Positions 6,530-56,838 of a DNA stretch of 64,000 bases are shown here, piece by piece. The translations under genes and the position numbers were made by a program. The notes under the pieces are model-generated. The model searched no databases, had not been told where the DNA came from, and saw only the letters and a program-made list of their open reading frames with translations. Location: contig JAXGZN010000002.1 in NCBI GenBank assembly GCA_040776945.1, positions 352,001 to 416,000 on the forward strand, given 5' to 3'. The first letter of the stretch is position 1. Every line of letters starts with the position of its first letter. This stretch comes from Methanomassiliicoccaceae archaeon (GTDB lineage: Archaea > Thermoplasmatota > Thermoplasmata > Methanomassiliicoccales > Methanomassiliicoccaceae).

Positions 6530-8593
6530 TTAGTACAAGCGGCGGGACCTCATCAGGACGATCAGCACGGCGGCAAGCACTCCGAAGATGGCCGCGCCGC
6601 CGACGATGATCATATCCTGGCCGATCCCCGCTCCCTCGGAGGACGCCTTGGCCTTGACGGTGAGGATGGCGCTCCGCTCCGCGGTGAGGCCGTCGGCCAT
6701 GACCGCCAGCACCGCTATCTTGTGGCTCCCCTCGGTGAGGCCCGTGATGTCGTATCCGGCGGCATCGCTTCCCAACGTTGCGACGACATGATCGTCCACC
6801 AGCACCTCGATGCGGTCAACCTCGGCCCCGGAAGCGCTGAAGACCCAGGTCAGCCGAACGGCATCGCCGACCGAGTACGAAGGGCTCAGGGGGCCCAACA
6901 TCAAGGACACGCTTCCGAGGGGGCCGTCCGGCCAGCCCCCGGATGCCGCGGTGAATGAGGTCATGTTCTGACCCCAGCGGCCGTCGGCGTCCATGGCCCA
7001 GATGGTCACGCGGTGCTCCCCGGCGCTCAGTCCGATGAAGGTGACGGACCTGAGGGCCGGATCGACCGTCCTGTTCTCCTCCCCGTCCAGGGAGGCGCGG
7101 AGTTCGGCGATGCCCGACATCGAGGTCACTTGGAACGGGACAGTGGCGGTGGTGGACGGGTACGCTCTCCCCGGTTCGGAGAAGGTGATCACCGGGTCCA
7201 TGGTCTCGATCGCTATGACCTCGGTCCTCTCGCTCTCGATGTTGCCGGCCCGGTCGGTGGAGTAGTACCGAACCAGGTGAGCACCGCCATTGGAGATGGT
7301 GACCTCCCCGGCATAGCGGGTCCAGGCGCTGGAATCGACCCGATAGTACGTCGAATCGACGCCCGATCCCTCGTCCACCGGGGTCAGCGAGAACGTGGCG
7401 GGGCCAGCGTAGGTGCTCTCGCCAACGCTGTCGCCGCTCACCGAGATGTCGGTTGCCGGAGCGGCGGTGTCCACCACGGTATAGGCTTCAGGCTCGGACC
7501 TCATGGCCTCGTTCTCCCCGTTCACGTCGAATCCCTGGGTGAAGAACTCGTACCTTCCGTCGGCCGGTGCGGTGAACGATATCGGGCTCGAGTAATGGTT
7601 CCCGCCGTACATGGTCCATCCGCCGCTGCTCCCCTGCCGGTAGTAAAGGTTGACATGGTCGAACGGCACGGAGGGCTGGTTCACGGTGAAGCCGATCTTG
7701 AACGTACGGGAGCCCTGCGCTGAGGCCAGGTTGTCCACGCTTGTGCTCACCGGAACGTTGCCGGGTGCGTCCGACCCGGTGACGATTATGTCATCAAGGT
7801 AGACGCCCTCCCTCATGCCGCCGTTGATGATGCGGACTCCTTGGGCGGCGAAGGCGTCGTCGGCGTCGCCGCCCTCCGGAGCAATGGTCCCGGACACGAA
7901 CTCGAAGCCGATGGCATCGATATCGTTGGGCACACCGATGCTCACATGGATCCATGTCCTAGCCGAGGCCTGGAACTCGCTGTCCGTCCACAGGACCCTT
8001 TTGGTCGCGGGGTCATTGCGGTCGGTCCAATAGAGCACGTTCAGGAAGTCGTACCCCACGCTCTCGCCGGTCAAGGGCTGCTTGGCGTCCGAGGCCCCGG
8101 TGTCGGACCAGAACCAGAAGCTGAGGGTCACGGTGCTGAAGGCGGACGCTCCGACCACCGCCTTCTTCATTATGGAGTCCTGGCCGGTATCGTACCTCGG
8201 CACCCACTGGGACTGGGGCGTGGTGCCCGGAAGGCCGGTGACATTGACGTTCCATGCCTGGGTGTATCCTATGTTGCCGTCGGCCTGGGTGACCGGGACA
8301 AGATAATGGCTGTTGTACCCGGTCCTGGACGCGTAGATGGCGTGGGCGCTATTGAGCAGATTGTGCGCGGAGCGGCACCAATAGTCCTCATTGACCATGC
8401 CGCCGGCGGCGTCCTTGTTCAGATCGAACCGTTGCCAGCTCGCGTCCCATTCAGCGTAGGTCGCTTGTTCCGCGTCCTCCCGGAGGAGGACCGCGGACGC
8501 CGGCGCTGCGGACGTGTTCACGGGCACGGACGTCAGGACAAGGAGCGAGAGCAGGACCAGTGTGCAGGCGGCGGTCAGCCTTTGACGGAGCAT
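6530..8593 (-). CDS. secreted, C-terminally membrane-anchored surface protein with Ig-like/OmpL47-like repeats (paralog A)
   Basis: Signal peptide; DTAAP, SGVDSTYYRVD, YYSTDRAGNIE repeats; C-terminal TM plus RSRR tail. Confidence 0.85.
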   Translation of the reverse strand: MLRQRLTAACTLVLLSLLVLTSVPVNTSAAPASAVLLREDAEQATYAEWDASWQRFDLNKDAAGGMVNEDYWCRSAHNLLNSAHAIYASRTGYNSHYLVPVTQADGNIGYTQAWNVNVTGLPGTTPQSQWVPRYDTGQDSIMKKAVVGASAFSTVTLSFWFWSDTGASDAKQPLTGESVGYDFLNVLYWTDRNDPATKRVLWTDSEFQASARTWIHVSIGVPNDIDAIGFEFVSGTIAPEGGDADDAFAAQGVRIINGGMREGVYLDDIIVTGSDAPGNVPVSTSVDNLASAQGSRTFKIGFTVNQPSVPFDHVNLYYRQGSSGGWTMYGGNHYSSPISFTAPADGRYEFFTQGFDVNGENEAMRSEPEAYTVVDTAAPATDISVSGDSVGESTYAGPATFSLTPVDEGSGVDSTYYRVDSSAWTRYAGEVTISNGGAHLVRYYSTDRAGNIESERTEVIAIETMDPVITFSEPGRAYPSTTATVPFQVTSMSGIAELRASLDGEENRTVDPALRSVTFIGLSAGEHRVTIWAMDADGRWGQNMTSFTAASGGWPDGPLGSVSLMLGPLSPSYSVGDAVRLTWVFSASGAEVDRIEVLVDDHVVATLGSDAAGYDITGLTEGSHKIAVLAVMADGLTAERSAILTVKAKASSEGAGIGQDMIIVGGAAIFGVLAAVLIVLMRSRRLY
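8043..8120. repeat. 78-nt exact repeat shared with 38243-38320
   Basis: aggaagtcgtacccc...ccagaaccagaag is identical at both positions and encodes FWFWSDTGASDAKQPLTGESVGYDF. Confidence 0.9.
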
Positions 8594-9116: not shown

Positions 9117-10499
9117 CTACGGCAGGTCCAGCCCCAGTAGCCTGAGGGTGTCGCACGCCGAGTCGTAGATCTTTAGGTGCTCCTTGGTCGGGAGCACGGT
9201 CTTCACGTTGTAGCACTCCTGGAACGTTCTTCCCTGGGGGGCGGTGAGATAGCGCCGCTCATAGCCGCGGACGATCTTGTGGACCATCCTGTTCACCTCG
9301 TCCACGCTCATGCCCGCCGCCAGGGTGGCGACCTCGCCGAGCATGCGCGCCTCCATTCCCGTGGTGTAGTCCTCCAGCACGCCCTTGGCGGACGCGCAGC
9401 CCGATAAAAGCTCTCGCCCGCTGGCGGTGTCCAGGAGCGCCTGGGCGGCGATCTCGTGCAGGCACATCTCGGTGCACGGGCCGGAGATGGTGTAGAACTG
9501 GTTAGCGATCAGCAGGTCCGTGTTCGCGTCGATCGCGGCGGCAGAGTGGCCGGCGACCTGCAGCGTCTCCCGTGAGGTGGTCATACCCCAGCGTATGTGT
9601 ATGGGGCCAGATAGGTGATAGCTGGCGTTGAGCAGGGTGAACGAGGCCAAGGTGGTCGCCACGTCGCAGATGGCCGTCTCCTCGATTCCGCCTATGTAGC
9701 CGCCGAGGATCGGCATCTGCTCAACCATGATAACGTTCCCGTTGTGGAGCCAGCCGGAGATCATCACCAGGCTCATGTTGTCGATCTTCAGCTCGTTGAG
9801 CTGAGACACCTCGTGGCTGTCGGTCGGCTTCATGCCGTCCTTGCCATCACAAGCGAGACGCCCCGCTGCGGACAGCGGTGTCTCAGGTCCCTATATGGCC
9901 ATGTATGGTCGTCCGGCCCGGTTGCACGCTTCCCGCACCGCCCTTATCTCGGCGAGCGTGGCCTTGATCTCGAACGGCGTGTTGGTGCTCGACGGGATCC
10001 CCCCGACCGTGGCCATGACTCCGTTGACAAGGGTGTCCACGACCGGCTCCTGGGCGTAGCTCTGCATCATTGGCACGAACACGTCCTCGGAGACCGTGGC
10101 CCCGGTCGGCCCGCCCTGGATGACCGGCTTCTTCGGAGCATTGGCCCGGCGGGGCTCCAGGACCACCTTCTCCCCGTACTCTCCCAGCTGTATGCGCTTG
10201 GGAGCCCCTCTGATTCCCGCCTTGACCTCGTCCTCTGTGACCCTTATGACGCGCTGGGTATCGACGTTGAGGATGCCGACCGATACCAGCATCTCCATTC
10301 CCGCCTGGAACAGCCTCTTCTTCAGGTCAGGGTCCACCGGGATGAACTTATCTCCAAAGTCCAGCTGGTACTTCTCTTTGAGTTCCGCCGCGGCGTCGGG
10401 CACGGTCTTGTTGTCCCATACGTTCTCGGTGGTCATGGGACCCCGCTCCGAGCGCAGGTAGGTCTCATAGACGGTCAATGCCTTCTCGATCGACGCCAA
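9117..10499 (-). CDS. mtmB: monomethylamine:corrinoid methyltransferase, Pyl-containing, divergent second copy
   Basis: TTG start after GGAGAG; in-frame TAG at 9891-9893 (codon 203) in RPYMAI-O-GPE; frame continues to give 460 aa; terminal stop is also TAG. Confidence 0.93.
9855..9884 (-). promoter_or_regulatory. PYLIS-like hairpin 6 nt downstream of the Pyl codon
   Basis: GAGAC-A-CCGCUG-UCCG-CAGCGG-GGC-GUCUC, identical to the copy in the other mtmB. Confidence 0.5.
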
Positions 10500-10519: not shown

Positions 10520-11161
10520 TCACATCATCAGCGCGTTGACCCTCTGGACCACCATGGACCCGCACTCACAGTACGCGTCACCGCCGATGTTCTCCACCCA
10601 CTTGCTGGTGCAGCAGGCGCCACCGAATATGGTCTTAACATTGAAAAGTTTTTCTTCCTTGAGACGCTCGATGATCTTCCTCTGGCCGACTAGGGTGGTG
10701 GTCATGAGCGCCGAGGCTCCGACGATGCTGGCGTTCATCTCCTTCGCCGCCTGGGTGAACAGGTGAGGGGGAACGTCCTTTCCTAAGTCATATACCAGGA
10801 ACCCGGCGCTCCTAAGGAACGCGGACACAACGTGCTTCCCGATCTCATGTATGTCCCCCTCCACGGTCCCTATGACCACCACGCCCTTGGACGGGATTTT
10901 CTCCTCGCCCATATGCCTCTCGTAGATGTTGATGGCCTGGGACATCGCCTGGGACGCGGCCAGGACCTGGGGCAAGAACATCCTGCCCTCGTTGAACATG
11001 TCGCTTATCTCCGCCATGCCCGCGCCGAGCCCCTTCTCGATGGCTTCCGCCGGACTGATGCCCATCCGCACCGCCTCCGTGGCGGCAGACACAGCCAACT
11101 TCTTATCGTATCTCATCACTGCCTCTTTCAATAAGGCCAGTATCTCGTCCTTGCTTCTCAA
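10520..11161 (-). CDS. mtmC: methylamine corrinoid protein (second copy)
   Basis: B12 cap FLPQVLAAS, GDIHEIGK (DxHxxG), GASALMTTT, IFGGA; TTG start after GGAGGA; directly upstream of mtmB. Confidence 0.9.
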   Translation of the reverse strand: MRSKDEILALLKEAVMRYDKKLAVSAATEAVRMGISPAEAIEKGLGAGMAEISDMFNEGRMFLPQVLAASQAMSQAINIYERHMGEEKIPSKGVVVIGTVEGDIHEIGKHVVSAFLRSAGFLVYDLGKDVPPHLFTQAAKEMNASIVGASALMTTTLVGQRKIIERLKEEKLFNVKTIFGGACCTSKWVENIGGDAYCECGSMVVQRVNALMM

Positions 11162-11338
11162 ACTATCTCCTCCCACACTCCGTTCCCACCGTTCCCTCCA
11201 AACGATAATCGCGAAGTCCCACTCAGTGTTTCGTGATTGTTAAGATATGCACCTGTAAGTACAGAATGATTTCGGGAAGAAGAGAGCAAGACTCCGCCGG
11301 GACTCCGGCTACAGCATGGCCTGCAGGGGCGCCTCATA

Positions 11339-12976
11339 TCACGCCTCTCCGCTCTCACCGGCCCTAAGTATCTTGATCTTCATCACATGCTCCGGGCATA
11401 CCAGCTCGCAGCGCTTGCACGCCGTCCCCAAGCATAGGTCGGACCGGACCCTGACGCGGGGCACATCGCCGTCGACGATGACCAGGGCCTTCTCGGGGCA
11501 GGACGCCTCGCACTTGCGGCACAGGATGCATCCATCGAGCTTTCCGGTGAGCACGGTACCCGGGTCCCGGAGCACGGTGATCCCCAGCTCCCCGAGGTCG
11601 GGGATGTCCCGGCTGACCTTCCTCTCGACCATGGCCTCCACCGGCTCAAGCCGCAGATGCGGCAGCGAATAGATGTCCAGCATGTCATTGTACGACGCCA
11701 TCGGCATGCCGTAGGACCACAGGGAAAGCTCGATGGAGTAGAGGTTCTTGAAGGTCTCCGAGGTCGCGAACATGCAGTGGGTCGCCCGGAGCTTCTTCGC
11801 GAACTCTCTCAGCTCGTCCAGGTCCTTTCTCCCGGTGGTGATGTCGCGGGCCATGGCCAGGGATGTGTTCCCATACTGAATTATCCTGGTCGAGCCCGGC
11901 GACACCATCCCCACCCGCTGGGCCTTCCCGGCGTCGACGTACAGCCCGGACGCGCCGGACATGAACGAGGTCGGCACGTCGTCCACCCATATGCCCGCTT
12001 CCCTCATCAGCGTGAGGTAGCCGGAGCGCAGGGCGCCGATGGCCTTCCCTGCCTCGGCCACGTCCCCCTCGGTGATGAAAACGCCGTCCTGCAGATGCAC
12101 CCTTGCGTCCGGCGTGGTGATGCGGGGCAGCCGGACGAGCCCGCTCCGCAATCCGCAGTCCAGGGCCGCCACCACCCCGGTACCGGTGATGCCCTTGGCC
12201 CGGCTGTGCATCTCCCCTCTCGCCTTCAGACCTCCGTTCTCCGGTGCGATCACGTCGCCCCGCCTAGCCTCGTAACCCTCGTCGAGGACCCAGCACTCCC
12301 AGCCGTCCTCGGTGATGTTGGCGTCCGAAATCGTCCCCGGAGCGGCTAGCATGCCCATCTCGATTTGCTGCCCCTCCAGAGCCGGCCCGGCGGCGGCCGA
12401 GCCCGAATAGATCTCGCCGTCCTTGATCAGCGCCATCTCCGCGTTGGTGCCATAGTCGATGACCAGGCACGGCTCCTCCTGCTCCAACGCCCCAGTCATG
12501 AGCAGCATCGCCAGAGCGTCCGCTCCGATCTCGTGCCCGACCGCCGGAGGTATGATCACCGAGGCGTCGCCTATCAGCCCCAGGCCGAGCTCGGCGGCGC
12601 CCACGATATCACCGTCCCTCTTAGGAGGGACGACCTTGAGCGTCTCTAGCATCCGCTTTCCGGCGTACGCCAGGTCACGGATCTCTATCTTCTGGAAGAG
12701 CGAGAGCTGGAACGGGTTCCCGCATACCCCTAAGGTGGTGACCTTTCCCAGATCGACCTTCAGGAGAGGGAACAGCCTGGAGACCGTATCGATGATGAGC
12801 CGGTTCGCCTCGTCCTCGCCCGCGTCAATGGCGAAGTTGATGTGGTCGATGACGTTCGAGCCGGGAATGGGATGCCTCGAGGTTATGGCGGTGGAGATGG
12901 TCCTGCCGTCAGCTAGGTCGATGGCCTGTGCCCGGAACCCGCTGGTCCCCAGGTCGAGAGCGATCCCCAGCGGCAT
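11339..12976 (-). CDS. ramA: methylamine methyltransferase corrinoid reductive activase
   Basis: IALDLGTSGFR, HPIPGSNVIDH, DYGTNAEMAL, SAAAGPALEGQ, two C-terminal ferredoxin Cys clusters; TGATG overlap with pylD. Confidence 0.93.
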   Translation of the reverse strand: MPLGIALDLGTSGFRAQAIDLADGRTISTAITSRHPIPGSNVIDHINFAIDAGEDEANRLIIDTVSRLFPLLKVDLGKVTTLGVCGNPFQLSLFQKIEIRDLAYAGKRMLETLKVVPPKRDGDIVGAAELGLGLIGDASVIIPPAVGHEIGADALAMLLMTGALEQEEPCLVIDYGTNAEMALIKDGEIYSGSAAAGPALEGQQIEMGMLAAPGTISDANITEDGWECWVLDEGYEARRGDVIAPENGGLKARGEMHSRAKGITGTGVVAALDCGLRSGLVRLPRITTPDARVHLQDGVFITEGDVAEAGKAIGALRSGYLTLMREAGIWVDDVPTSFMSGASGLYVDAGKAQRVGMVSPGSTRIIQYGNTSLAMARDITTGRKDLDELREFAKKLRATHCMFATSETFKNLYSIELSLWSYGMPMASYNDMLDIYSLPHLRLEPVEAMVERKVSRDIPDLGELGITVLRDPGTVLTGKLDGCILCRKCEASCPEKALVIVDGDVPRVRVRSDLCLGTACKRCELVCPEHVMKIKILRAGESGEA

Positions 12977-13833
12977 CAGATGGCCTCCATCCACACCGCT
13001 CTGCCCTCTAGCAGAGGGGCGCGCGGCAGGGACAGACTGGCGCTCCAAACCGCCATCACCGAAACTCCGATCTGCAGGGGATCGTGCACCAGCGTCGCCA
13101 TCTTGCGGATGCCGATCTCGTCGAAGGAGAAAGGCATCCCCGGGGACGATACCACGCATCCTTGCTGGACCCACTCCCCTGGTATCCTAGCCGGTGAAGC
13201 GTTCAATATGAGGTCGTGACCCTTGACTGCCTCCATCAGGTCATCGCAGACCGTGAACTCCCTGAACTTCGATCTCAGGGCTTCCGCCTTGGAGCGATCG
13301 ACGTCGACCACCGTGACCTTCGCGCCATTCCTCGCCAGCAGCTCGGCCGAACAGCTCCCGACCCGTCCAGCGCCGATCAGCAGGACGTCCCTGCCTCTCA
13401 GGCCGCCGGCGGCCTCCCGCAGGGCGGTGAAGTAGCCAAGAGCGGTGGACCTGATGTTGTTGACGGCCCGCCGGGCCCGGCAATTGATCGCCAGGAACTC
13501 GTTGTCGTCGGCCATGAAGATGAGGTCGGCCCCGGACCCCAGCGCCTCGCCGAGGCCGGCAACGTCGGTCTCCTCGGTGACATATGCCTTCGGCCCAAGG
13601 TGCTCGACGATGGCGCAGACCGATTCCGAGAAGCCCGCGGTCGCGCCGAGGCCAGCGGTGACAGGGACGCACGCGGCCGTAAGGCCCTCCATGTCCAGTT
13701 CGTGGAGGTCTATCCCCACGGAGGTGTAGGCAAGCTCCTTCATGGTCATTCCCAGGGCCCTGGCGAGGGACGAGTCCCGCCCCTGTGAGGAGGATGGCAC
13801 GTCCCTGATCATCTCCGGCGTAAGTCTGGTCAT
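12976..13833 (-). CDS. pylD: pyrrolysine synthase (3-methylornithyl-N6-lysine dehydrogenase)
   Basis: MTRLTP, VPVTAGLG...GFS, FMADD, GAGRVG Rossmann motif, HDPLQIGV; operon position. Confidence 0.95.
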   Translation of the reverse strand: MTRLTPEMIRDVPSSSQGRDSSLARALGMTMKELAYTSVGIDLHELDMEGLTAACVPVTAGLGATAGFSESVCAIVEHLGPKAYVTEETDVAGLGEALGSGADLIFMADDNEFLAINCRARRAVNNIRSTALGYFTALREAAGGLRGRDVLLIGAGRVGSCSAELLARNGAKVTVVDVDRSKAEALRSKFREFTVCDDLMEAVKGHDLILNASPARIPGEWVQQGCVVSSPGMPFSFDEIGIRKMATLVHDPLQIGVSVMAVWSASLSLPRAPLLEGRAVWMEAI

Positions 13834-14987
13834 CAGATAACCTCCTCTGAACCCTCGAGACCCTCGGCGCGCGCGATCTCCCGGATGCACCTGGTCCTCT
13901 TCTCCCTGACGAGCTCAGAAGTGCTGCCGGAGAACATCAGCGTCCCCCTCCAGCTCCTTGCTCCGGGCCTGTGATCGGTCATCGCGTCATCAGCGCCGAA
14001 AAGGCCAGGAGCTATCCTGGGGGATCGGACCTCGGCGAACCCCCTCTCTCCGCACGACCGCATGCGGCCATCGTCGGCGGCGATGTGCTCGTAGACCGAC
14101 GCGCCCTGCCTGACGGGGCCGGCATCCTCCAAGCGGCCATGGACCAGCGCTCCCACCAGCCGCTCCAGGAGATTGACTCCGGTAGCGTGGTATACCGCCG
14201 CGGGGGTCTGGCTGGGGATCCGCGCGTCGATCTCCAGCACCTTTGGGACGCCGCCGCACACGATGGCCTCAACGTCCATGATGCCCCGGAGCCCCATCCC
14301 TTCCGCGATCTTCCTCGCGATGCCGGCGAAGGCAGCCTCGACCGAAGGTTCCAGCCCCTCAGGGGGGCAGCGGACCATGCGGCAGTCGTACCCTGCGTCC
14401 AGAACAACCTCGGTGATCACCATGGGCACCGCCCGAGCTCCGTCCCCGATGACCTCGATGGAGATGTTCGGCCCTTCCACGAACTCCTGGACTATGGGCT
14501 CCTCACCCAGCGCCCTGACCGCCTCAATGCCCATCTCCAGCTCCTCCGGCCCGCTCGCCTTCGCCACCCCTACGCTCCCGCTCTGCCCGGAGGGCTTCAC
14601 CACCACGGGGAAGCCGCAGTTCGGCCAGGGTGACGGAACAGGGACCCCCATCCGCTCGAACAGCTGATTGGAGTGCAGCTTGGACGACGAGATCTCGTAG
14701 GCCCTCATATCGAAGAGAAGGGGCGTTTCCAGCTCTCGGAACATATCGCTCAGGCATATGAGCGCAGCGTAGTTTTCGTTGGCCGGGAGGACGGCATCGC
14801 AATCCTCCAGGACCTTGGCCGCCCGTCCGCGTTCCAAGGTCACGTCCAGAACGACAGCCTCGTCCGCCAGCGACAGAGCGGGGGCGTCCGTTCGGCGGTC
14901 CACCACGAGGGTCTCATAGCCCGCCTTCCGGGCCAGATAGGCGGCTTCCATCCCCTGCAGGGCCCCTCCCACGATGCCAAGCTTCAT
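13833..14987 (-). CDS. pylC: 3-methylornithine--L-lysine ligase (ATP-grasp)
   Basis: IVGGALQGMEAAYLA.KAG, PANEN, KPS..SGS.GV, LEIDARIPSQTP. Confidence 0.95.
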   Translation of the reverse strand: MKLGIVGGALQGMEAAYLARKAGYETLVVDRRTDAPALSLADEAVVLDVTLERGRAAKVLEDCDAVLPANENYAALICLSDMFRELETPLLFDMRAYEISSSKLHSNQLFERMGVPVPSPWPNCGFPVVVKPSGQSGSVGVAKASGPEELEMGIEAVRALGEEPIVQEFVEGPNISIEVIGDGARAVPMVITEVVLDAGYDCRMVRCPPEGLEPSVEAAFAGIARKIAEGMGLRGIMDVEAIVCGGVPKVLEIDARIPSQTPAAVYHATGVNLLERLVGALVHGRLEDAGPVRQGASVYEHIAADDGRMRSCGERGFAEVRSPRIAPGLFGADDAMTDHRPGARSWRGTLMFSGSTSELVREKRTRCIREIARAEGLEGSEEVI

Positions 14988-16087
14988 GTCCTGACCCCCC
15001 TGTCCGCGGCCTTCCAGTTCTCTACCAGCGACGAGTAGGCGGAAGGCATCGCCATCCTGAGACCCAAGCCGTCCAGGATCTCCTCTACCTGAGGGACCGT
15101 CCGTCCGCCGGCCTCGATATCTAGGTCATGCTGCGCCACCCCGGCCAGACCGTGGCTGGGAGGTATTATCGAAGTGATGACATTGGCCCCCGCCACCAGC
15201 CTGGACCGTAGGCCGCCGATCCCCTCAACGTCCAGGCTCGCCGGTATCAGCCGGTCGGGGTACATCAACCTCATTATCGCTATGGCTGTCAGCTCATCTC
15301 GGAACAGGGCATGGTCGCGCTCGGCCATGGGCGTATTGCTCTGGGGAACGAACCCCATCGCCCTCACCTGCCGGACGCCCAGCTCGCCCATGATCTGGAC
15401 CGATCTTGCTCGATCGGCCGCGGTCTCCCCCACGCCGACCATGATCCCCTCCTCGGCCAGCATCCCGGAGTTCATCGCCCATTTCTTCTGGGCGAGCCTC
15501 GTGTCATAATCCTGCCCCGGCCGGAGGAAGGAGAACAGGGCGCGGTTATGTGTTTCCTGGTAGCAGGCGAACCAGTCCCCTCCGGCCTGCCTGAGCCTGG
15601 GGAACACCTCCTGGGGGACAACGCCCGGAGAGACCATCAGGGGAACCTCGACCGCATCGTTCACCCTCTGCACAAGGTCCACGAGATTGGAGCAATCGCC
15701 CCCCTGGTGCATATGAGGGTCCTCCCCCATGGTGAGGTCGACCAGATGCACCCCGGAGTCCTCAAGGGCGGTGGACAGGTCAATGATCTCCTCCAGGGTC
15801 TTGCGGTACCTTACGCTATGGTGGTTCGTGCTGCGATAGAAGCAGAACGAGCAGTTGTTGCGGCAGTAGGTCGAGAAGTACACGAACCCGTAGCAGAACA
15901 CCGCACTGCCGAAGTGCCTCTCCTTGACCTCCCTGGCCGCAGCGAACAGGTCGTCCAGCAGGGTCTGGTCCTTGATCGAGAAGAGAACCTCAAGGTCCTC
16001 TGCAGACGCTTTCGACCCATTCTTCAGACCGGATATCAATTCCTGCGCGCGGCAGGCGTCCGGTGAGCTCCGCCCCCTATATGTCAA
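14984..16087 (-). CDS. pylB: methylornithine synthase (radical SAM); start uncertain
   Basis: YGFVYFSTYCRNNCSFCFYR, DLTMGEDP, ACYQETHN, IPASLDVEG, GLAGVAQ; TTG at 16087 overlaps the end of pylS. Confidence 0.93.
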   Translation of the reverse strand: MTYRGRSSPDACRAQELISGLKNGSKASAEDLEVLFSIKDQTLLDDLFAAAREVKERHFGSAVFCYGFVYFSTYCRNNCSFCFYRSTNHHSVRYRKTLEEIIDLSTALEDSGVHLVDLTMGEDPHMHQGGDCSNLVDLVQRVNDAVEVPLMVSPGVVPQEVFPRLRQAGGDWFACYQETHNRALFSFLRPGQDYDTRLAQKKWAMNSGMLAEEGIMVGVGETAADRARSVQIMGELGVRQVRAMGFVPQSNTPMAERDHALFRDELTAIAIMRLMYPDRLIPASLDVEGIGGLRSRLVAGANVITSIIPPSHGLAGVAQHDLDIEAGGRTVPQVEEILDGLGLRMAMPSAYSSLVENWKAADRGVRT

Positions 16088-16904
16088 GGCGGGCCCCCCG
16101 CAAGTACATGAGGCTTCGCCCAACCTTCTTGATGTTGCTAGCTCCGGTCTTCACCATGAGCAGGCGTTCCAGTCCATAACCGGCTCCCACCCAGGCATCG
16201 GTAATCCCATGAGCGCCATCGAGCCTGTGGGGCCCACATGCCGCCGAGGCCACCTCGATCCCGTTGACTTCCACGTCCAGAGTGTCGCCGTATACCTCGG
16301 AATCGGTGGTGCACAGTTCGTAGTCCAGACCGACGGTCCTCATTATAAGGTCGATATGCGCCCTAAGGCAGGTCATGGGATCGCCTTCCGGGGCCATCTC
16401 CACCAGGTTGAGCATGGTGAACTCCTCGAGATGGTCTGAGCCGCGGCTCTCCTTCCGATAGCAGGTCCCGATCTCGAACATGCGCAGGGGCATCTTCGCC
16501 GTGCGCTTCAGATGACGCATCAAGAAATACAGGTTCGGGGCGAGCATAGGTCGGAGGCAGCGCCCCTCGTCCAGCCAGAACACCTGGTGATGAAGAGGGT
16601 GCGAATCGTCGATCCCCATCTTGGACAGCGCTCTTGAGGAGATTATGGTCGGGGTCCTGACCTCGAGGAAACCGTTGCTGATGAGAGCATGAGCGAGGAC
16701 CTCCTCCAAGTGGGCCAATCGGTCCCGCTCGGGCCGTTTCTGAACATACCTTATCTCCTTCCGGTTGGCGGCCTGGTGATGCGCAACCTCAACAGCGAAC
16801 GCCTCATCCCGTTCCTCGCTGGTCTCGAACCTCTTGATCACATCAGGGGTCCCGCCGAGCTCCCTCAGCCTCTGCTTCTGAGATGACGTCCACTCAATGG
16901 CCAT
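16077..16904 (-). CDS. pylS: pyrrolysyl-tRNA synthetase lacking the N-terminal domain (275 aa)
   Basis: SQKQRLRELG, CLRPMLAPNLY, FEIGTCYRKES, HLEEFTMLNLVE, GAGYGLERL; ends in TAG. Confidence 0.97.
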   Translation of the reverse strand: MAIEWTSSQKQRLRELGGTPDVIKRFETSEERDEAFAVEVAHHQAANRKEIRYVQKRPERDRLAHLEEVLAHALISNGFLEVRTPTIISSRALSKMGIDDSHPLHHQVFWLDEGRCLRPMLAPNLYFLMRHLKRTAKMPLRMFEIGTCYRKESRGSDHLEEFTMLNLVEMAPEGDPMTCLRAHIDLIMRTVGLDYELCTTDSEVYGDTLDVEVNGIEVASAACGPHRLDGAHGITDAWVGAGYGLERLLMVKTGASNIKKVGRSLMYLRGARLDI

Positions 16905-16946
16905 TGGAATCCCCCCTGTAAGGGCTGAATGATAATGGCAAATTTA

Positions 16947-17018
16947 TGGCGAAGTGCCCGGGAGTCGAACCCGGCTGCCGCGGCTGTAGAGGCCTGGTGG
17001 TCGCCGGACCAACACTCC
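16947..17018 (-). tRNA. pylT: tRNA-Pyl (CUA anticodon, encoded CCA)
   Basis: GGAGUGU acceptor pairs with GCACUUC-G-CCA; short GGUC/GACC D-arm; bulged anticodon stem with loop CUCUACA; T-arm CCGGG-UUCGACU-CCCGG. Confidence 0.95.
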
Positions 17019-17199: not shown

Positions 17200-17400
17200 A
17201 AGAATGTGAATGATAATATAAAGACTTTTTGCCTTATCGTTGGCCATCAAAATAATACATATTTAAAATTATCTTTTTTTCCTTTTATATGGCATTAAAA
17301 TGTTATATAAAGTTTGTTACTCGATACTATTGTTTTATATACATAATTAGCAATAGGTAGGTTAGCCATTAATATTTTGAATAATGGCATATTCGGAGGA
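17200..17400. promoter_or_regulatory. AT-rich divergent promoter region between pylT and mtmC
   Basis: Sharp GC drop, several TATA-like boxes (TTATATAA, TTTTATATA), GCCATTA-N10-TAATGGC inverted repeat, GGAGGA RBS at 17395-17400. Confidence 0.65.
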
Positions 17401-17406
17401 TACAGA

Positions 17407-18045
17407 ATGAGCAACAAAGCTGAAATACTGGGACGTCTCAAGAAATCCGTAGAGACTTGGGACGTCAAGTTGGCCGAATCGGCGGCAAAAGAGGCTTTGG
17501 CGGCCGGGATCGAGCCGGGAGAGGCTGTGGAGAAGGGCCTTGGAAAGGGCATGGAGACCATCAGCAACCTGTTCGATGACGCCAAGATCTTCCTGCCCCA
17601 GGTTCTGGCCGCGTCCCAGGCCATGGAGAAGGCGCTGAAGATCTTCGAGCCGGCCATGACCAAGGGAAAGTCCGCGCTCAGGGGAACCGTGGTCATCGCC
17701 ACTGTTCTGGGCGACATCCACGAGATCGGGAAGAACGTGGTTGCGGCCATGCTGAAGGGCGCTGGATACAATGTGATCGACCTTGGCAGAGATGTAGCTC
17801 CAGAGAAGTTCGTGGAGGCGGCCAAGGAGAACAATGCCGATGTGGTAGGTGCCTCTGCGCTGATGACCACCACGGTAGTCGTTCAGAAGGACATCGTTGA
17901 AATGCTCAAGGCAGAGAAGGTCAAAGTGAAGACGATCTTCGGAGGCGCTCCTGCCAACGAGGAATGGGTCCAGAGCATCGGCGGGGACAAGTACTGCCCA
18001 TCTGGCGCCGAGGCGGTTGAGATGGTCAACGCTCTAGTGGGGTGA
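17407..18045 (+). CDS. mtmC: monomethylamine corrinoid protein
   Basis: IFLPQVLAAS, GDIHEIGK, GASALMTTT, IFGGAP; GGAGGA RBS. Confidence 0.93.
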   Translation: MSNKAEILGRLKKSVETWDVKLAESAAKEALAAGIEPGEAVEKGLGKGMETISNLFDDAKIFLPQVLAASQAMEKALKIFEPAMTKGKSALRGTVVIATVLGDIHEIGKNVVAAMLKGAGYNVIDLGRDVAPEKFVEAAKENNADVVGASALMTTTVVVQKDIVEMLKAEKVKVKTIFGGAPANEEWVQSIGGDKYCPSGAEAVEMVNALVG

Positions 18046-18051
18046 TATGAA

Positions 18052-19431
18052 ATGGCACTTGCAAGACCACTATCAGTCTTTGATGTGTACGACCGCTTCA
18101 TGAAGGGCAAGAAGGTCACCGAAGCGGAGTGGGACTACCAGATCATACCCACCAACGCGGCGGCGATGAAGAAGAAGTACAACATCAAGTTCGGCAAGGA
18201 AATGATCCCCGAGGACAAGGATCTGAAGAACCGGCTGTTCCAGGCTGGAATGGAGATGCTGGTCACCACCGGGTTCTACAACTCCGATCTCGGCCGTGTC
18301 ATGAACATAACCGAGGAAGAAATCCGGGAAGGGATTAAGAAGACCCCCACCAAGCTTCTCCTGGGAGAGTACCGTGACGCAGCCAGGTTCGAGCCCAGGC
18401 ACGGCAACGACAGGAGAAAACCGATCATCCAGGGAGGGCCGACCGGAGCGCCTGTCTCTGAGGAAGTGTTCGTCCAAGTCATGCAGAGCTACGCCCAGGA
18501 GGCTACTGTAGATACCCTGGTGAACGGCGTCATGGCCACCATCGAAGGCCACAGCGCTACCACCAACACTCCATGGGAGATCAAGGCGGAGCTCGCAGAG
18601 CTCAGGGCAGTGAGGGAGGCCAGAATAAGGGCCGGACGACCATACATGGCCATATAGGGACCTGAGACACCGCTGTCCGCAGCGGGGCGTCTCGCTACGA
18701 ACCTTCTTGGCGGGCTGAGGCCTTGTGACTCCCACGAGTGCTCGCAGCTCAATGAACTAAAGATAGACATGGCAGCCCTCAACATGCTTTCCGGATGGAT
18801 CCTCAACGGGGATACCATCATGATCGAGCAGATGCCGATCTTCGGGGGGTACTGCGGAGGGGTCGAGGAAACTGCCATCTGCGATGTGGCCACCCACCTG
18901 GCGTCGTTCACCCTGTTCAACGGGAACTTCCACCTGGACGGTCCGATCCACATCCGCTGGGGCATCACCACTTCTCGGGAGACGCTGCAGATCGCCGGCC
19001 ACGTGGCCGCCGCGGTCGATGCGAACACCGACCTGTTGATCGCCAACCAGTACTACCCCATATCGGGTCCCTGCACCGAGATGTGTCTACTCGAGACGGC
19101 CGCTCAGGCCATGGTGGACACTGCCTCCGGTCGGGAACTGCTGTCCGGGTCCGCGGCCGCCAAGGGCGTGGCCATGGACAAGACCACCGGTATGGAAGCC
19201 AGGATCATGGGCGAAGCTTCGATTGCGACCTGTGGCATGAAGATCTCCGACGTCAACGAGATACTCGAGAAGCTGGTCAGCTCCTACGAGGGCAACTACC
19301 ACAAGCCTCCTGCCGGCAAGCGCTTCCAGGAGTGCTATGACGTCAATACCGTCAAGCCCACCGACGAGTACCTGAAGGTCTACGACAACGTTGTCAAGAC
19401 CCTGAGGGACCTCGGCCTAGCGATCAAGTGA
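18052..19431 (+). CDS. mtmB: monomethylamine:corrinoid methyltransferase, Pyl at codon 202
   Basis: In-frame TAG 18655-18657 is codon 202, the canonical MtmB Pyl position; E205 and E229 retained; 459 aa; TGA stop. Confidence 0.96.
18629..18696. repeat. 68-nt exact repeat spanning the Pyl codon (inverted copy at 9852-9919); contains the hairpin at 18664-18693
   Basis: gggccggacgaccatacatggccataTAGggacctgagacaccgctgtccgcagcggggcgtctcgct is present in both mtmB genes. Confidence 0.92.
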
Positions 19432-34649: not shown

Positions 34650-36894
34650 GGACCTCGACGCTGAGCTGGGCAGGCACAATCTCCTGTTCGCCCGGACGCC
34701 GGAAAAGGCACGATTGTGCCGACAGCTGTTGACCGGCAGCGTCCTGCTCCACGGATCGGGAGGGATGGGGAAGACAACCCTCATGCTCCATGCCCTGCGG
34801 GAGCTGGGAAGCATGGGAGGCGGCCTCCAAAGCGCCTCCCCGCCCGTCCCGGACGCTGGGCACTCATTCTACTTCGAGGACCTTAGCGCCTTCATCCGTT
34901 TCCTCGGGGTAAGGAAAAGACCGCTCACGGTGAACAGGGCCTCGATCGCCTTCAGATGGGACGAGGGCGGTGAGAGGAAGGAATCGACCATCACGCTCCG
35001 CGGACGGGGAGCATCGGTCCCCGAGGGCAAGGCCACGCCGATGGCGGCATCGTCACCGATCTTCCAGACCGACCGCCTGGTCGTCCGCTCCACGCTGGAG
35101 GCGGTCATAGGGCCGAGGTTCGACATGGAAGAGGTGGCAAAAAAGGCAGAGCCTACGCTGGCCCGCTTCTCCGAGACCCTGGGGCAGGCCATAGAGCAGG
35201 CAAGGAGAGGGAAAGGCAAGGATGCCATCCAGGGCGCGGGCGGGGGCGGGACCGGAAGGACTATGCCGGCGAGGATCGCAGGCGCCCTGGCCGCGGTCGT
35301 GGACGGCTCGGTCGGGGAGGGGAGCAGGGAGCGCGGCGTCGTCCTGAACTTCCTGGAGGAGGAGCTGGCAGCCCTCGTGGAAGAGTGCAACAGGGAGGTC
35401 TACCTCTCCGCGGCGTCTTTCCTCAGAGCGGAAGACGGACCTGTCCGGCGTTCGTCCCTCCGGGAGTTCGAGGATAGCCTGCTGGAGTTCCTGGACAACA
35501 GCAACCTCGATCGCCTTGTCCCCGGAGAGATGACCTTTTGGAGATGGTACATAGGGATCGATCACTTGGAGAGAGGGGTGCCCGGGTGGACCCTGGACAT
35601 CAAGAAGGAGGCGGTCCGCATGATCTATGAGAAACTGTCGGAGAAGGACGGCTTCCACGCGGTAATGGCCGTGGAGCCCAATCCCGCCCTGATCTTCGGG
35701 CACATGGGGCCAGGAGAGGTCAGGTCCGACAGGGAAGGCGCGGCCATCTCCTCTATGGAGGTCATCATGCCTCCCAAAGACGACCTCGTGCGCGAGAGCT
35801 CCAACTTCATTGTCGAGAACGTCGATGACCTCGGCGGCCTGCGGAAGGCCGATGTGCAGAAGGTGATGGCGGACCTCTACGACCACTGCAGAGGGCGGAT
35901 CAGGCTATACTATCTGGTGCGCAGCATCAAGAACCTTCCCGCGCTGCAAGCGCAGGGGATGGAGCAGGTAGAGCCGGACGCGTCGTTCCTGGACCGGCAG
36001 CTGGGGGATGCCCTGGGCCAGCTGGGCATGCGCTATGAGTACGATATCAGCATCAAGAACCTGCCGGCGGTGCAGCCCCTGTTGGAACTGGCGAGGATGA
36101 GGGAGCGGTCGGCCGCGGAGAGCGCCCCGCAGATATCCAGGAACGTGATGTCCTGGCTCCTGGACGTCCACCAGGTAGGCCCGGCGGTGGGGGCCGGCAG
36201 ATACCTGGCCGCCATGGAGGCCTATGGCGTCCTGAAGGTCGACGGGGACCGCATCGGGTTCTTCGACCCCTATGTGGAGTGGGAGATGCGTTCTTTGGCC
36301 AGGTCTGCGGACCATGGGGACCCTCCTCTGGCGATAGCCTTCCGTTCGGTCGACCGGCTGAACCGCTTCCTTTCCGTCGTGGACGAGGCAGACGTCCTGG
36401 CCCTCTCCAGCTACATCTCGGCGTCGCTCTCGAAATGGTCGGCCACGTCCAGGACCGATCCCGGGATATATGCCTCTCTGGTCTCCGCTCTGGAGGGCGG
36501 AGGGGACTTTCCCGACCGCAGGAGAAAGCTCGCTGCCTTGGCGGCCAGCGCCGTCCTCGGCGGCGTGCCCTTCCCCTCGGTCGACCTAGAGGGCCGCCGC
36601 CGGCAGATCATCGCTGAGCTGCTGAGGGGAGCGGTCAACGGCAGCGACCCGCGGCTGGCCTCGCTGGCCTCCCGGGCCGCGAGGAAGATGACCGAGCTGG
36701 CGGGGGCCAAGGGATGCGTGCTCTGCGGTGCTCACTTAGAGGACGGCCAGGTCATTTGCGCTTCCTGCGGAGCGGACTACCGGGACATATGCCCGTCCTG
36801 CGGAGAGAGTCTGGCCCCTCACTTCGCATACTGCGCCGGCTGCGGGGCCGAGGCGCCCCGGGACCGGACGGCCCGCCAGGGGACCGAGCTCTGA
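34630..36894 (+). CDS. STAND/archaeal-type P-loop ATPase with winged helix and C-terminal double zinc ribbon
   Basis: Walker A GSGGMGKT, Walker B-like YIGIDHLE, wHTH-like GVLKVDGDRIGFFDPYVEW, four CxxC pairs; overlaps the upstream gene by 20 nt. Confidence 0.78.
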   Translation: MEMRSLRDLDAELGRHNLLFARTPEKARLCRQLLTGSVLLHGSGGMGKTTLMLHALRELGSMGGGLQSASPPVPDAGHSFYFEDLSAFIRFLGVRKRPLTVNRASIAFRWDEGGERKESTITLRGRGASVPEGKATPMAASSPIFQTDRLVVRSTLEAVIGPRFDMEEVAKKAEPTLARFSETLGQAIEQARRGKGKDAIQGAGGGGTGRTMPARIAGALAAVVDGSVGEGSRERGVVLNFLEEELAALVEECNREVYLSAASFLRAEDGPVRRSSLREFEDSLLEFLDNSNLDRLVPGEMTFWRWYIGIDHLERGVPGWTLDIKKEAVRMIYEKLSEKDGFHAVMAVEPNPALIFGHMGPGEVRSDREGAAISSMEVIMPPKDDLVRESSNFIVENVDDLGGLRKADVQKVMADLYDHCRGRIRLYYLVRSIKNLPALQAQGMEQVEPDASFLDRQLGDALGQLGMRYEYDISIKNLPAVQPLLELARMRERSAAESAPQISRNVMSWLLDVHQVGPAVGAGRYLAAMEAYGVLKVDGDRIGFFDPYVEWEMRSLARSADHGDPPLAIAFRSVDRLNRFLSVVDEADVLALSSYISASLSKWSATSRTDPGIYASLVSALEGGGDFPDRRRKLAALAASAVLGGVPFPSVDLEGRRRQIIAELLRGAVNGSDPRLASLASRAARKMTELAGAKGCVLCGAHLEDGQVICASCGADYRDICPSCGESLAPHFAYCAGCGAEAPRDRTARQGTEL

Positions 36895-36974
36895 CCGACG
36901 GCGGTGCGGGAGGACGGCGGACCGCCGATGCAGTCGCCTCTAAAGGAACGAAGGTCGAGATATTAGGATTCGGA

Positions 36975-37012
36975 AGAAAAGGATAAAAGAGAAGAGGGGG
37001 CGGCGCCCCGTT
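36975..37012 (-). terminator. GC hairpin plus pyrimidine tract after the surface protein gene
   Basis: Minus strand reads GGGGCGCCGCCCC followed by TCTTCTCTTTTATCCTTTTCTTCC. Confidence 0.5.
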
Positions 37013-37017
37013 GCTCC

Positions 37018-38754
37018 CTACTTCCTGCGCCTGATCAGCAGGAACGCTCCGGCCGCGGCCGCAAGCACGATCGCGGCGATCCCGATCATTACCAGCGGGT
37101 CGGTGAAGAACGAGCCTGGGCCGCTGCTTCCGACGGAGAAGGTCTTCGAGCTGACGAGGACGTTCCCGTCCGAATCGGTGGCCTTGATGGTCAGGGTATG
37201 CTCGCCCGTCTTGAGGCCGGCGAAGGCCACCGACCTGCCGGACGGGTCCATGCTCACCATCTCGCCGTCGTCGAGCGAGTATTGCAGGCCGACCAAGGTC
37301 GCGCTGTCAAGGGCAACTGTGAAGTTGACCGTCACGTCCCCGTTGGGGGTTATCGACACATCATTGAACGTGATCCCCGGGGTCCCGTGGGAAAGGGTGA
37401 TCGCCGCGCTCTTGATGCTCTCCACGTTTCCGGCCAGGTCGGTCGCGTAATACTCGATGGTGTAGCTGCCGTCCCTGGCGAAGCCAACACCTGAGGAGTA
37501 CTCGTTCCAAGCGCCGCCGTTCACCCGGTAGTAGATGGCCTTGACCCCGGAGACAGCGTCGGTCGCACTTAGGGTGAAGGAAACGGACCCCTCGTAGCTG
37601 GTGCCGTTCCCGTTGCCGGAGAAGGCGATGGTAGATGCCGGCCTGGTGAGATCGATGGTGGTCGTAGCGTCCGCCGCGTTCCGCGCCGGCTCGATAACAT
37701 CGAGGTTGTCCGTGCCTCGAGTGAAGAACTCATAGGCACCCTCGCGGGGCGCGGTGAACTGGATGGTACGGGTGGTGTTGGGGAACTTCCCATCCGGCCT
37801 CAGGGATGTCTCGTACTTGATCCAGTTCCCGGTCCCGTCGATTCGGTAGTAGAGGTCGATCCACTTCATTCCCACCTGGGGATCGTTGTTCGTCCAGTTG
37901 ACGTTAAAGGTCAGGTTGTTCTGGTAAGCATCAAGGTAGTCCACGGCCGTGACCAGGTTCTCCGAGGGGAGCAGGTCGGTCCCGACCACGGTGATATCGT
38001 CGAGGAACACGCCCTTCCTCATCCCTCCGTTCACCATGTTGACGAACGGAGCCGGGCTGCTCGCGTCGCCCCCCGCCGGAGCGACGGTCCCGGACACGAA
38101 CTCGAAACCGACCCAGGTCGAGTTGCTGGGAATTACAATGGACTTCTGGATCCACCTCATGCTCCCCGCCTCCGCCTCGGTATCGGTCCATGCCACGTGC
38201 TTCACGCGGTTGTCGCCGGTCCCGGTGAAGTAGATGAGGTTGAGGAAGTCGTACCCCACGCTCTCGCCGGTCAAGGGCTGCTTGGCGTCCGAGGCCCCGG
38301 TGTCGGACCAGAACCAGAAGTTCACGGTCACGGTCCCATAGTATCTCGCCTGGGAGTTGAGCTGCTTCCGCATCACCGCGTCCATCCCGGTGTCGTAGCG
38401 GAGCACATGGCTCTTCTGAGTGGGATCGCTCGAAGCGGTCACATTGACGTTCTCCACCTGGGTCCCGTTGGCGTAGTAATGGGAGTTGAACCCGTTCTTG
38501 GCGCAATAGATCGAGAAGGTCCCGCTGTGGACCTCATGCTTGGTCCTGCACCAAGTATCATAATCGTTGGCGGTGTTGGCGTCATAACGGTCCCATTGCG
38601 CGGCCCAGAGGTTGAAGGACCCTTCTTCCGCGCCTTCGGAGATGAACGTCTGCTCGGACGGCAAGGCCGCGCTCACCCCATGAGGGATGGCCGTGACCAG
38701 CGTCGTCGCGCACAATAGAAATGCAATGGCTATGCTGAACCAGGAGCTTTTCAC
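37018..38754 (-). CDS. surface protein with Ig-like/OmpL47-like domains (paralog C)
   Basis: Signal peptide; clear homology to 6530-8593 (WCR, RYDTG, FWFWSDTG, GFEFVSG, YATDLAGNVE); TM plus RRRK; TAG stop. Confidence 0.87.
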   Translation of the reverse strand: MKSSWFSIAIAFLLCATTLVTAIPHGVSAALPSEQTFISEGAEEGSFNLWAAQWDRYDANTANDYDTWCRTKHEVHSGTFSIYCAKNGFNSHYYANGTQVENVNVTASSDPTQKSHVLRYDTGMDAVMRKQLNSQARYYGTVTVNFWFWSDTGASDAKQPLTGESVGYDFLNLIYFTGTGDNRVKHVAWTDTEAEAGSMRWIQKSIVIPSNSTWVGFEFVSGTVAPAGGDASSPAPFVNMVNGGMRKGVFLDDITVVGTDLLPSENLVTAVDYLDAYQNNLTFNVNWTNNDPQVGMKWIDLYYRIDGTGNWIKYETSLRPDGKFPNTTRTIQFTAPREGAYEFFTRGTDNLDVIEPARNAADATTTIDLTRPASTIAFSGNGNGTSYEGSVSFTLSATDAVSGVKAIYYRVNGGAWNEYSSGVGFARDGSYTIEYYATDLAGNVESIKSAAITLSHGTPGITFNDVSITPNGDVTVNFTVALDSATLVGLQYSLDDGEMVSMDPSGRSVAFAGLKTGEHTLTIKATDSDGNVLVSSKTFSVGSSGPGSFFTDPLVMIGIAAIVLAAAAGAFLLIRRRK

Positions 38755-53093: not shown

Positions 53094-53272
53094 GAGGACG
53101 CGGAAAGACCCCGGAAGATGTTGACAGCTCGCTCAAGCATATCGGGGCACATCGTGAGCGATTGCCGGGGAGGGTCGGAGAGAGGGAACTCGTCACCGGA
53201 TGTCCTTTATGAACAAAATCCCTAATGGCAAATAAATTATATTCGTCCCTGACATATCTTGGTGGTCTTTGG

Positions 53273-54415: not shown

Positions 54416-54445
54416 TCGTGTTCAAAGATGCCCGGAGCCTGTTCC

Positions 54446-55552: not shown

Positions 55553-55613
55553 CTATGAAAAATTTAATATATTTCGAGATGAAAATAAGAACTAGATGGA
55601 ATAGGTGTGAGAA

Positions 55614-56738: not shown

Positions 56739-56838
56739 GCGCTTTTGCCAGCGCGTTAACGGGCCTCAGATAATTTTATATCCGATAACTCATATTTTCT
56801 AATCCCCATAGTCAGTTTCAGCATGAAGGTGCAAACAG

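Follow-up and report, generated by a model that had tools for sequence, protein, structure and literature searches.

The two mtmB genes and their common tract

The window analysed here, a 64,000-nucleotide (nt) stretch of contig JAXGZN010000002.1 from a Methanomassiliicoccaceae archaeon (assembly GCA_040776945.1), contains two genes for monomethylamine methyltransferase, mtmB1 and mtmB2, which lie inverted about 8.7 kb apart, flanking the pyl genes (Table 1), and which are the only mtmB genes found in the genome by tblastn. Each carries an in-frame TAG codon for pyrrolysine (Pyl), around which the two genes have a tract of 68 nt in common, identical at every position (68/68, one copy being the reverse complement of the other) and present exactly twice in the 2.17-Mb genome. 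The tract comprises 26 nt upstream, the UAG, a 6-nt spacer, a 30-nt hairpin and 3 further nt, and is a strongly selected, compact hairpin resembling the pyrrolysine insertion sequence (PYLIS), overlaid by recurrent gene conversion.

As aligned by codon, mtmB1 and mtmB2 agree in 289 of 460 residues (63%) and in 940 of 1380 bases (68%), and their longest identical run after the 68 nt measures 21 nt, followed by runs of 17 and 15 nt. By our arithmetic, the probability of a 68-nt run between genes that are 68% identical is about 5e-12 per start and about 6e-9 per gene. The first-pass annotation, made from the letters alone, had described a perfectly identical tract in two extensively different MtmB proteins, and both statements hold. 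Its remark that the tract uses codons unusual in this genome is borne out as well by genome-wide usage, where CGT supplies 7.1% of the arginine codons (the rarest, rank 6/6), CGA 8.0%, GCA 10.4%, ACA 8.5% and CCA 11.0%.

Table 1. Features of the window and their positions; the limits of the reading frames in the pyl cassette are those of the first start codon, unrefined.
Feature	Position	Strand	Basis and remarks
mtmB1, monomethylamine methyltransferase	18052..19431	+	Pyl TAG 18655-18657; stop TGA; Pfam MtmB 795.9 bits, 1 TAG inside
mtmB2	9117..10499	-	start TTG 10499 or ATG 10436; Pyl TAG 9891-9893; Pfam MtmB 734.6 bits
68-nt tract, copy in mtmB1	18629..18696	+	sequence comparison
68-nt tract, copy in mtmB2	9852..9919	-	sequence comparison
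Hairpin, copy 1	18664..18693	+	outer stem 18664-18668/18689-18693; inner stem 18670-18675/18680-18685; RNAfold, RNAalifold
Hairpin, copy 2	9855..9884	-	RNAfold
ATA (Ile) codon directly before Pyl TAG	18652..18654	+	also 9894-9896 in mtmB2; invariant in relatives
Sub-threshold match, Rfam RF01982 PYLIS_1	18655..18754	+	50.0 bits, gathering score 70
Sub-threshold match, Rfam RF01982 PYLIS_1	9794..9893	-	63.7 bits, gathering score 70
mtmC1, corrinoid protein	17377..18045	+	directly upstream of mtmB1; Pfam B12-binding, B12-binding_2
mtmC2, corrinoid protein	10520..11176	-	upstream of mtmB2; Pfam B12-binding, B12-binding_2
Cassette between the inverted mtmCB operons	11339..17018	-	RACo-type corrinoid activase, pylD, pylC, pylB, pylS, tRNA-Pyl; Pfam
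RACo-type corrinoid activase	11339-13174	-	Pfam
pylS, ends in TAG	16077-16904	-	Pfam
tRNA-Pyl, anticodon CTA	16947-17018	-	ARAGORN

Structure of the hairpin

In both copies, the minimum-energy structure predicted by RNAfold consists of the helices GAGAC/GUCUC and CCGCUG/CAGCGG with a UCCG loop, just as the first-pass annotation had drawn it. The first paired base lies 6 nt 3' of the UAG, and an outer stem of 5 base pairs (bp) is followed by an internal loop (A 18669 opposite GGC 18686-18688), an inner stem of 6 bp and the UCCG loop (18676-18679). Stretches of 121 nt around the two copies have z-scores of -2.27 and -2.31, where 3 of 200 shuffled sequences fold as well in each case. The RNAalifold consensus of 40 sequences has the same structure at -16.57 kcal/mol, with 98.4% of its cells paired. 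In the mRNA of mtmB2, which also terminates at a UAG, the fold after the Pyl codon reaches -17.2 kcal/mol versus -4.8 kcal/mol after the stop codon. This stop of mtmB2 (TAG, 9117-9119, minus strand) is followed in frame by another TAG after 65 codons and by a TGA after 90.

Synonymous constraint in relatives

A sample of 151 genomes from the order was searched, of which 83 have mtmB, and 120 mtmB genes were extracted (two from each of 55 genomes, one from each of six and four from one); these are the full-length matches, from genomes with a pair, among the matches listed, fragments at contig ends being left out. The family of this genome is labelled f1 below, and the other two families of the order that carry mtmB are labelled f3 and f7. 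Ranked by stability among all windows of their gene, the 42 nt after the UAG belong to the top 5% in 30/30 mtmB genes of f1, 12/12 of f3 and 38/78 of f7.

In f1 (30 genes from several genera and both paralog clades), zero entropy is seen in six of the nine four- or six-fold degenerate columns at codons +3 to +12, namely CCG, CTG, TCC, GCG, CGT and CTC of the hairpin, while none of the 114 comparable columns elsewhere in mtmB of this family falls below 0.3 bits. The GCA column has 0.58 bits and alternates only with GCG, except for GTA (Val) in one genome (G060), and the two columns whose third position falls in the internal loop vary freely (ACN, 1.00 bits; GGN, 1.65 bits). On a tree of 42 genes from f1 and f3, the six columns undergo 0-2 codon changes, as against 14.8 on average, and never fewer than 4, in 112 background columns, so the check proposed at first, for a hairpin and synonymous conservation in orthologues of other species, reveals strong constraint. 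Every frozen third position has as its partner a base that the protein sequence dictates, unless it is the C in the UCCG loop, and the CGT codon supplies the U of an A-U pair in the stem.

All 11 pairs form in 30/30 f1 genes and 10/12 f3 genes. Where only one side of a pair has changed, the result is a G-U pair in 7/7 cases, which fits selection on sense-strand RNA and not on duplex DNA or the antisense strand. In the two f3 exceptions (G056 and G106), three pairs are broken by several changes at once and the stem is re-registered. The hairpin is also kept in the genomes where one mtmB gene was found (G021, G045, G051 and G054). The RNA is thus conserved beyond what the protein needs, as is expected of an element of the PYLIS class, at six columns of mtmB and likewise in mtbB (below), and purifying selection very probably acts on the RNA fold in f1 and f3.

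Gene conversion between the paralogs

In a tree built without the tract, the two mtmB genes of this genome belong to different old clades, each together with orthologues from other genera, and their identity in the tract therefore does not stem from a recent duplication. Among 11 f1 genomes with both paralog types, the distance at 0 to +30 is smaller between paralogs within a genome (0.021) than between orthologues (0.058 and 0.066), while over the whole gene the paralog distance is the higher (0.337 vs 0.223 and 0.269); at +210 to +240, the paralog distance is marginally lower (0.215 vs 0.246 and 0.235). At the variable sites +8, +26 and +32, the paralogs agree with each other in 11/11 of these genomes, and at +5 and +14 in 7/11 and 9/11, respectively, while the genomes differ from one another. 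Compared with its nearest relative (G037), this genome differs by 12% and 19% in the two orthologues, and the three differences within the tract are all common to both paralogs, whereas outside the tract 213 sites are of the orthologue type and 12 of the paralog type. The chance of three paralog-type sites out of three is about 2e-4 by our arithmetic, with the caveat that the tract had itself been delimited by the likeness of the paralogs in one of these genomes.

The ends of the tract vary among genomes (-26..+42, -22..+49, -6..+49, -3..+41 and +6..+50), and the longest identical run of the paralogs lies at the UAG in 10/11 two-copy genomes of f1, 2/6 of f3 and 1/38 of f7. The pattern is that of interlocus gene conversion, a bounded tract of paralog likeness within genes that otherwise follow the orthologue phylogeny, and we are confident that recurrent short-tract conversion homogenises the flanks of the core. 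The frozen core accounts for 30 nt but not for 68, and conversion therefore explains the flanks, i.e. the 26 nt upstream, the spacer and the last 3 nt. As the only long stretch of paralog identity, the core presumably seeds the conversion. To judge by the states at -4 and -12, the upstream flank would in this lineage have come from mtmB2. Conversion had at first been set against a selected element as its alternative, but the two operate together, selection on the core and conversion on the flanks. In the f7 pairs, the longest identical runs lie elsewhere in the gene, often at about +410 to +465.

Similar tracts were said to occur in other paralogs of the window. Here mtmC1 and mtmC2, 68% identical, have no long identical run, and two surface-protein genes have one stretch in common. 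The latter are large paralogs with immunoglobulin-like (Ig) domains (6530-8593 and 36736-38754, both on the minus strand), whose proteins are 41% identical and which have 112 nt at 91% identity (8023-8134 vs 38223-38334), a stretch that may be another conversion tract. Gene conversion among the methylamine methyltransferase paralogs of Methanosarcina has reportedly been described by Nayak and Metcalf 2019 (ISME J).

Hairpins in other Pyl genes and in other lineages

This genome (99.8% complete) was found to encode neither mtbB nor mttB. The mtbB genes of its relatives, whose sequence is unrelated to mtmB, have a hairpin of their own starting 3-6 nt after the UAG, and 9/10 genes of f1, 2/2 of f3 and 12/20 of f7 have the window after the UAG among their most stable 5%. 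In 12 mtbB genes of f1 and f3, third positions within the stem vary little or not at all, the loop codon CCN reaches 1.83 bits, and zero entropy occurs in none of 97 background columns.

The Methanosarcinales-type mtmB genes (80 loci) have a 7-bp hairpin of other sequence, UUCCCUG-N6-CAGGGAA, in the same place, with the window after the UAG ranking among the top 5% at 38 of 63 unique loci. Between the orders, the inner stem thus differs on both sides (UCCCUG/CAGGGA vs CCGCUG/CAGCGG), with a shifted register and amino-acid changes. The element had been called lineage-specific, which is right for its sequence and not for its position, as a hairpin is also found there in Methanosarcinales-type mtmB and in part of f7.

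The codon directly before the Pyl TAG is ATA in 42/42 mtmB genes of f1 and f3, 12/12 mtbB genes and 11/12 mttB genes (loci L273-L294, L300 and L302 included), and in the Methanosarcinales-type mtmB it is ATA in 55, GTT in 17 and GTC in 7 of 79. Genome-wide, ATA makes up 25% of the isoleucine codons, and it precedes 8 of the 353 TAG stops. It may be part of the decoding context, or may reflect an active-site requirement together with codon preference. One mtmB homologue of f7 (G103:C28:140276-141634), 48% identical to the query, has no in-frame TAG and is probably a non-Pyl MtmB-like methyltransferase.

Reads and transcripts

Sixteen RNA runs from nine studies (P1-P9) cover 17377-19431 in full or nearly so, although presence in an RNA library alone is not proof of transcription. 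In three of the runs, from three studies, a single contig of about 3.45 kb extends from 17375-17377 through mtmB1 and beyond with 0 differences, and mtmB2 is represented in RNA runs by pieces that end at or near the tract. In a DNA run, which may be the source of the assembly, the 68-mer forms a separate graph node with a depth of 14.7, about double that of its four flanks (6-8). The ten other, independent f1 assemblies have identical tracts of 29-71 nt in the same place, including 69 nt in G037 and 71 nt in G072. An assembly artefact, i.e. a collapse or chimera of the two paralogs, would fit the breaking of short-read graphs at the tract, but is scarcely credible in view of the RNA contigs that cross the mtmB1 copy unchanged, the node of about double depth, into which four distinct flanks reach 30 nt, and the recurrence of the tract in the other assemblies; the read check asked for at first thus speaks for a real tract.

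The RNA contigs begin at the start codon of mtmC1 (17375-17377) in three studies, one loose end being sequencing adapter, which suggests that the mtmC1-mtmB1 transcript is leaderless. Their depth is 32-44 at mtmC1-mtmB1 and 1-7 over the pyl genes and mtmB2, where contig depth is a poor measure of expression. Among the contigs aligned, no joints of an inverted pyl cassette were found, and such contigs cannot exclude an inversion.

Putative function and alternative explanations

In the whole genome, TAG terminates 353 of 1595 called genes (22.1%), in line with the earlier statement that many genes here stop at TAG. The share is 12.6-23.8% in the relatives of f1 and f3, except for 6.4% in G006, which still has the hairpin, and 0-6.2% in f7, as counted in samples of 35-87 called genes per genome, only this genome (G000) being counted whole. 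The association of TAG-stop use with the hairpin exists only at the level of families and amounts to two or three independent contrasts at most. In the literature, cited here and below for those parts of each paper that were available, TAG-stop use is 11.3% and 1.6% in two named species of the order (PMC4153887), and its median is 5% in Pyl-encoding and 22% in Pyl-free archaea (PMC12626013); these genomes thus use TAG stops about as often as Pyl-free archaea (22% here vs a median of 22%).

A mechanism may be proposed as follows. The hairpin in the sense-strand mRNA is very probably kept by purifying selection at synonymous sites in f1 and f3, and this selected core, being the only long identity of two ancient paralogs inverted about 9 kb apart around the pyl cassette, presumably acts as the seed of short-tract conversion, which recurs in many lineages and has left 68 identical nt here. 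When a UAG occupies the ribosomal A site, the stem would have its base at the mRNA entry of the ribosome, where it could favour Pyl-tRNA in its competition with the single release factor. We lean slightly towards this putative function, in which the hairpin favours Pyl insertion over termination at the UAG; such a preference would matter in an organism that terminates about 22% of its genes at UAG and whose known need for Pyl is confined to the two mtmB genes. The combined reading, a selected hairpin with recurrent conversion that acts in Pyl decoding, appears reasonably probable. A broader proposal is tentative and rather doubtful: in the Methanomassiliicoccales lineages where UAG still serves as a normal stop (13-24% of genes), Pyl insertion could be gene-specific and directed by a true cis signal made of AUA-UAG, a spacer of 3-6 nt and a stable, capped hairpin. 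This signal would have evolved separately in mtmB and in the unrelated mtbB and would act on the ribosome directly, with no dedicated factor, and the Pyl site would be a hotspot of conversion between paralogs.

Several results weigh against a hairpin selected for Pyl decoding. RNAalifold, run as the covariation check, finds no compensatory covariation within f1 and f3 (0/11 pairs, covariation term 0), although none is possible without a change of the protein, because each pair joins a synonymous site to a protein-fixed site. Synonymous recodings of the same 15 codons fold at about -13 to -16 kcal/mol, compared with a mean of about -9 in the gene, and the conserved GC-rich peptide therefore already favours structure. 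The real sequence beats the recodings at p <= 0.05 in only 12/30 f1 genes, as well as in 11/12 f3 genes, and the hairpin of this genome (-17.2 kcal/mol) does so only at p = 0.10 and 0.15 for the two copies. About half of the f7 mtmB genes lack the hairpin though the Pyl codon is present, TAG-stop use and hairpin state are unrelated within f7, and mttB has no general hairpin (window after the UAG in the top 5% in 2/12 f1 genes). After genuine TAG stops, stable folds show no depletion (mean -9.67 vs -9.54 kcal/mol after TGA, p = 0.70), and 26 of the 353 are followed by an equally stable or stabler fold, so stability alone cannot be the signal. In the genome, neither an extra EF1A/SelB-like GTPase nor a second release-factor-sized eRF1_3 match was found. 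Reviews moreover hold, as far as their available text goes, that Pyl can be inserted without any cis element (PMC8211752, PMC9499178).

Among the alternatives, a selected hairpin with another job is rather unlikely: instead of promoting Pyl insertion, it could serve mRNA stability or processing, protection of the 3' half of the mRNA upon termination at the UAG, pausing for the folding of an active-site loop, or throttling of translation where Pyl-tRNA is scarce. All the evidence for selection on the fold applies to it equally, and it would agree with the stable folds tolerated after ordinary TAG stops and with mttB and the many f7 mtmB genes that do without such a fold. However, mtmB and mtbB, which are unrelated, both have the fold just 3-6 nt 3' of their recoded UAG and at no other site, a placement which points to the decoding step, and replacement of the Methanosarcina element altered the ratio of full-length to truncated product, according to the available part of PMC2933860.

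An element acting as DNA, such as a palindromic protein-binding site or a recombination site that flips the pyl cassette, is improbable. The sequence is indeed an inverted repeat, its copies are inverted on either side of the pyl genes, and the same layout (about 9 kb, opposite strands) recurs in 8 of the 10 other two-copy f1 genomes, but on duplex DNA or on the antisense strand the one-sided G-U changes would be mismatched, genomes with a single mtmB found show the hairpin just as fixed, and the hairpin after the UAG of mtbB has a different sequence. More improbable still is recent gene conversion alone, with the hairpin as an accident of a GC-rich conserved peptide. Conversion demonstrably occurs at the tract, the peptide predisposes to structure (hence the modest p values of this genome's copies), the stem lacks covariation, and paralog conversion in Methanosarcina appears in the title of Nayak and Metcalf 2019; yet conversion within a genome cannot fix six synonymous sites in 42 genes of two families amid saturated neighbouring sites, cannot leave just the two internal-loop third positions free, and cannot account for genomes that keep the sequence with one copy found. 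The six sites frozen across two families already contradict it.

Genomic neighbourhood

In two-copy genomes of f1, this one included, the mtmB pair is inverted about 9 kb apart on opposite strands in 9/11, the other two (G037 and G072) having their copies on different contigs, and in most f7 genomes the pair is adjacent on the same strand. The cassette between the two operons ends its pylS (275 codons) in a TAG (16077-16079, minus strand), and translating this codon as Pyl would lengthen the protein by 28 residues up to the following stop, which may provide feedback on the synthetase or may be without effect. Farther away, at 52035-57918 (plus strand), five tandem paralogs of 352-396 aa, each with an Acetyltransf_6 (GNAT) domain, adjoin polysaccharide-synthesis genes, and their repeat segments are 60-77% identical.

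Comparison with known systems

The hairpin is of the known, disputed PYLIS kind, with a predicted fold unlike that of Rfam PYLIS_1. It has in common with the Methanosarcina PYLIS (RF01982) the gene, the position from the Pyl UAG, the 5' arm GAGAC and the same debated proposed role of aiding translation of UAG as Pyl. Both copies match PYLIS_1 in cmscan (E = 1.4e-12 and 9e-9) with scores below the gathering score of 70 bits, and both matches begin at the UAG, i.e. directly 3' of an in-frame mtmB UAG as in the Rfam family. Many of the consensus pairs are marked non-standard, especially in mtmB1, and for both copies RNAfold favours the local hairpin; we read the PYLIS_1 alignment as showing, in mtmB2, a distal complement to GAGACACC. 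The published fold, taken here from the Rfam model, spans about 100 nt with a long-range stem (10-17/82-89) and an inner hairpin (40-60), whereas the element described here is predicted to be a local 30-nt hairpin in a region unpaired in that model, only the GAGAC arm being common to the two.

Whether pyrrolysine needs a signal in the mRNA has been argued for about twenty years, and this hairpin reopens the question. In the available text of the papers cited, replacing the PYLIS of Methanosarcina mtmB1 gave less full-length MtmB and more truncated product (PMC2933860), and in ribosome profiling the clearest UAG-associated ribosome occupancy was seen in mtmB (PMC13663744), while PYLIS is treated as dispensable and poorly conserved (PMC2933860, PMC8211752, PMC9499178). 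Published comparisons of PYLIS report, in the same portions, little covariance or conservation (PMC2933860, PMC9499178), in contrast to the extreme synonymous constraint found here. In the literature searched, which did not extend to the original PYLIS papers and the 2019 conversion paper, neither an element of this kind in Methanomassiliicoccales nor conversion at a Pyl site was described.

The bacterial selenocysteine insertion sequence (SECIS) is likewise a hairpin of the coding sequence, placed a few nt after the recoded stop and constrained by both protein and RNA, as set out in the available part of PMC1976440. SECIS acts through the dedicated factor SelB, whereas a specialised EF-Tu/EF1A paralog of this type was not found here: the genome has four strong GTP_EFTU matches, in open frames of 434, 734, 451 and 599 aa, and two weak ones, and the four appear by size to fit the standard archaeal set. 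For Pyl-tRNA, the general elongation factor suffices (PMC2933860, in the part available). Viral and eukaryotic readthrough stimulators, stem-loops or pseudoknots, also place a stable structure a short spacer 3' of a leaky stop and are found by enhanced synonymous-site conservation (PMC3159437, likewise in part); they assist near-cognate decoding on eukaryotic ribosomes, whereas here a cognate suppressor tRNA would compete with an archaeal release factor.

With the conversion among Methanosarcina methylamine methyltransferases (Nayak and Metcalf 2019), the locus has in common, to judge by the title of that paper, the concerted evolution of paralogs; here the conversion joins old paralogs (68% identical) over a few tens of nt around the Pyl codon and is presumably seeded on a selected RNA element, which illustrates how such an element could localise gene conversion between old paralogs. 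The evolutionary signature is much clearer than the limited covariance reviewed for the Methanosarcina PYLIS (available text of PMC2933860): the synonymous sites are frozen exactly where they are paired, and the same signature is found in a second, unrelated Pyl gene, mtbB. The element is small and offers defined positions for synonymous knock-out, and it is testable in the existing Pyl reporter systems.

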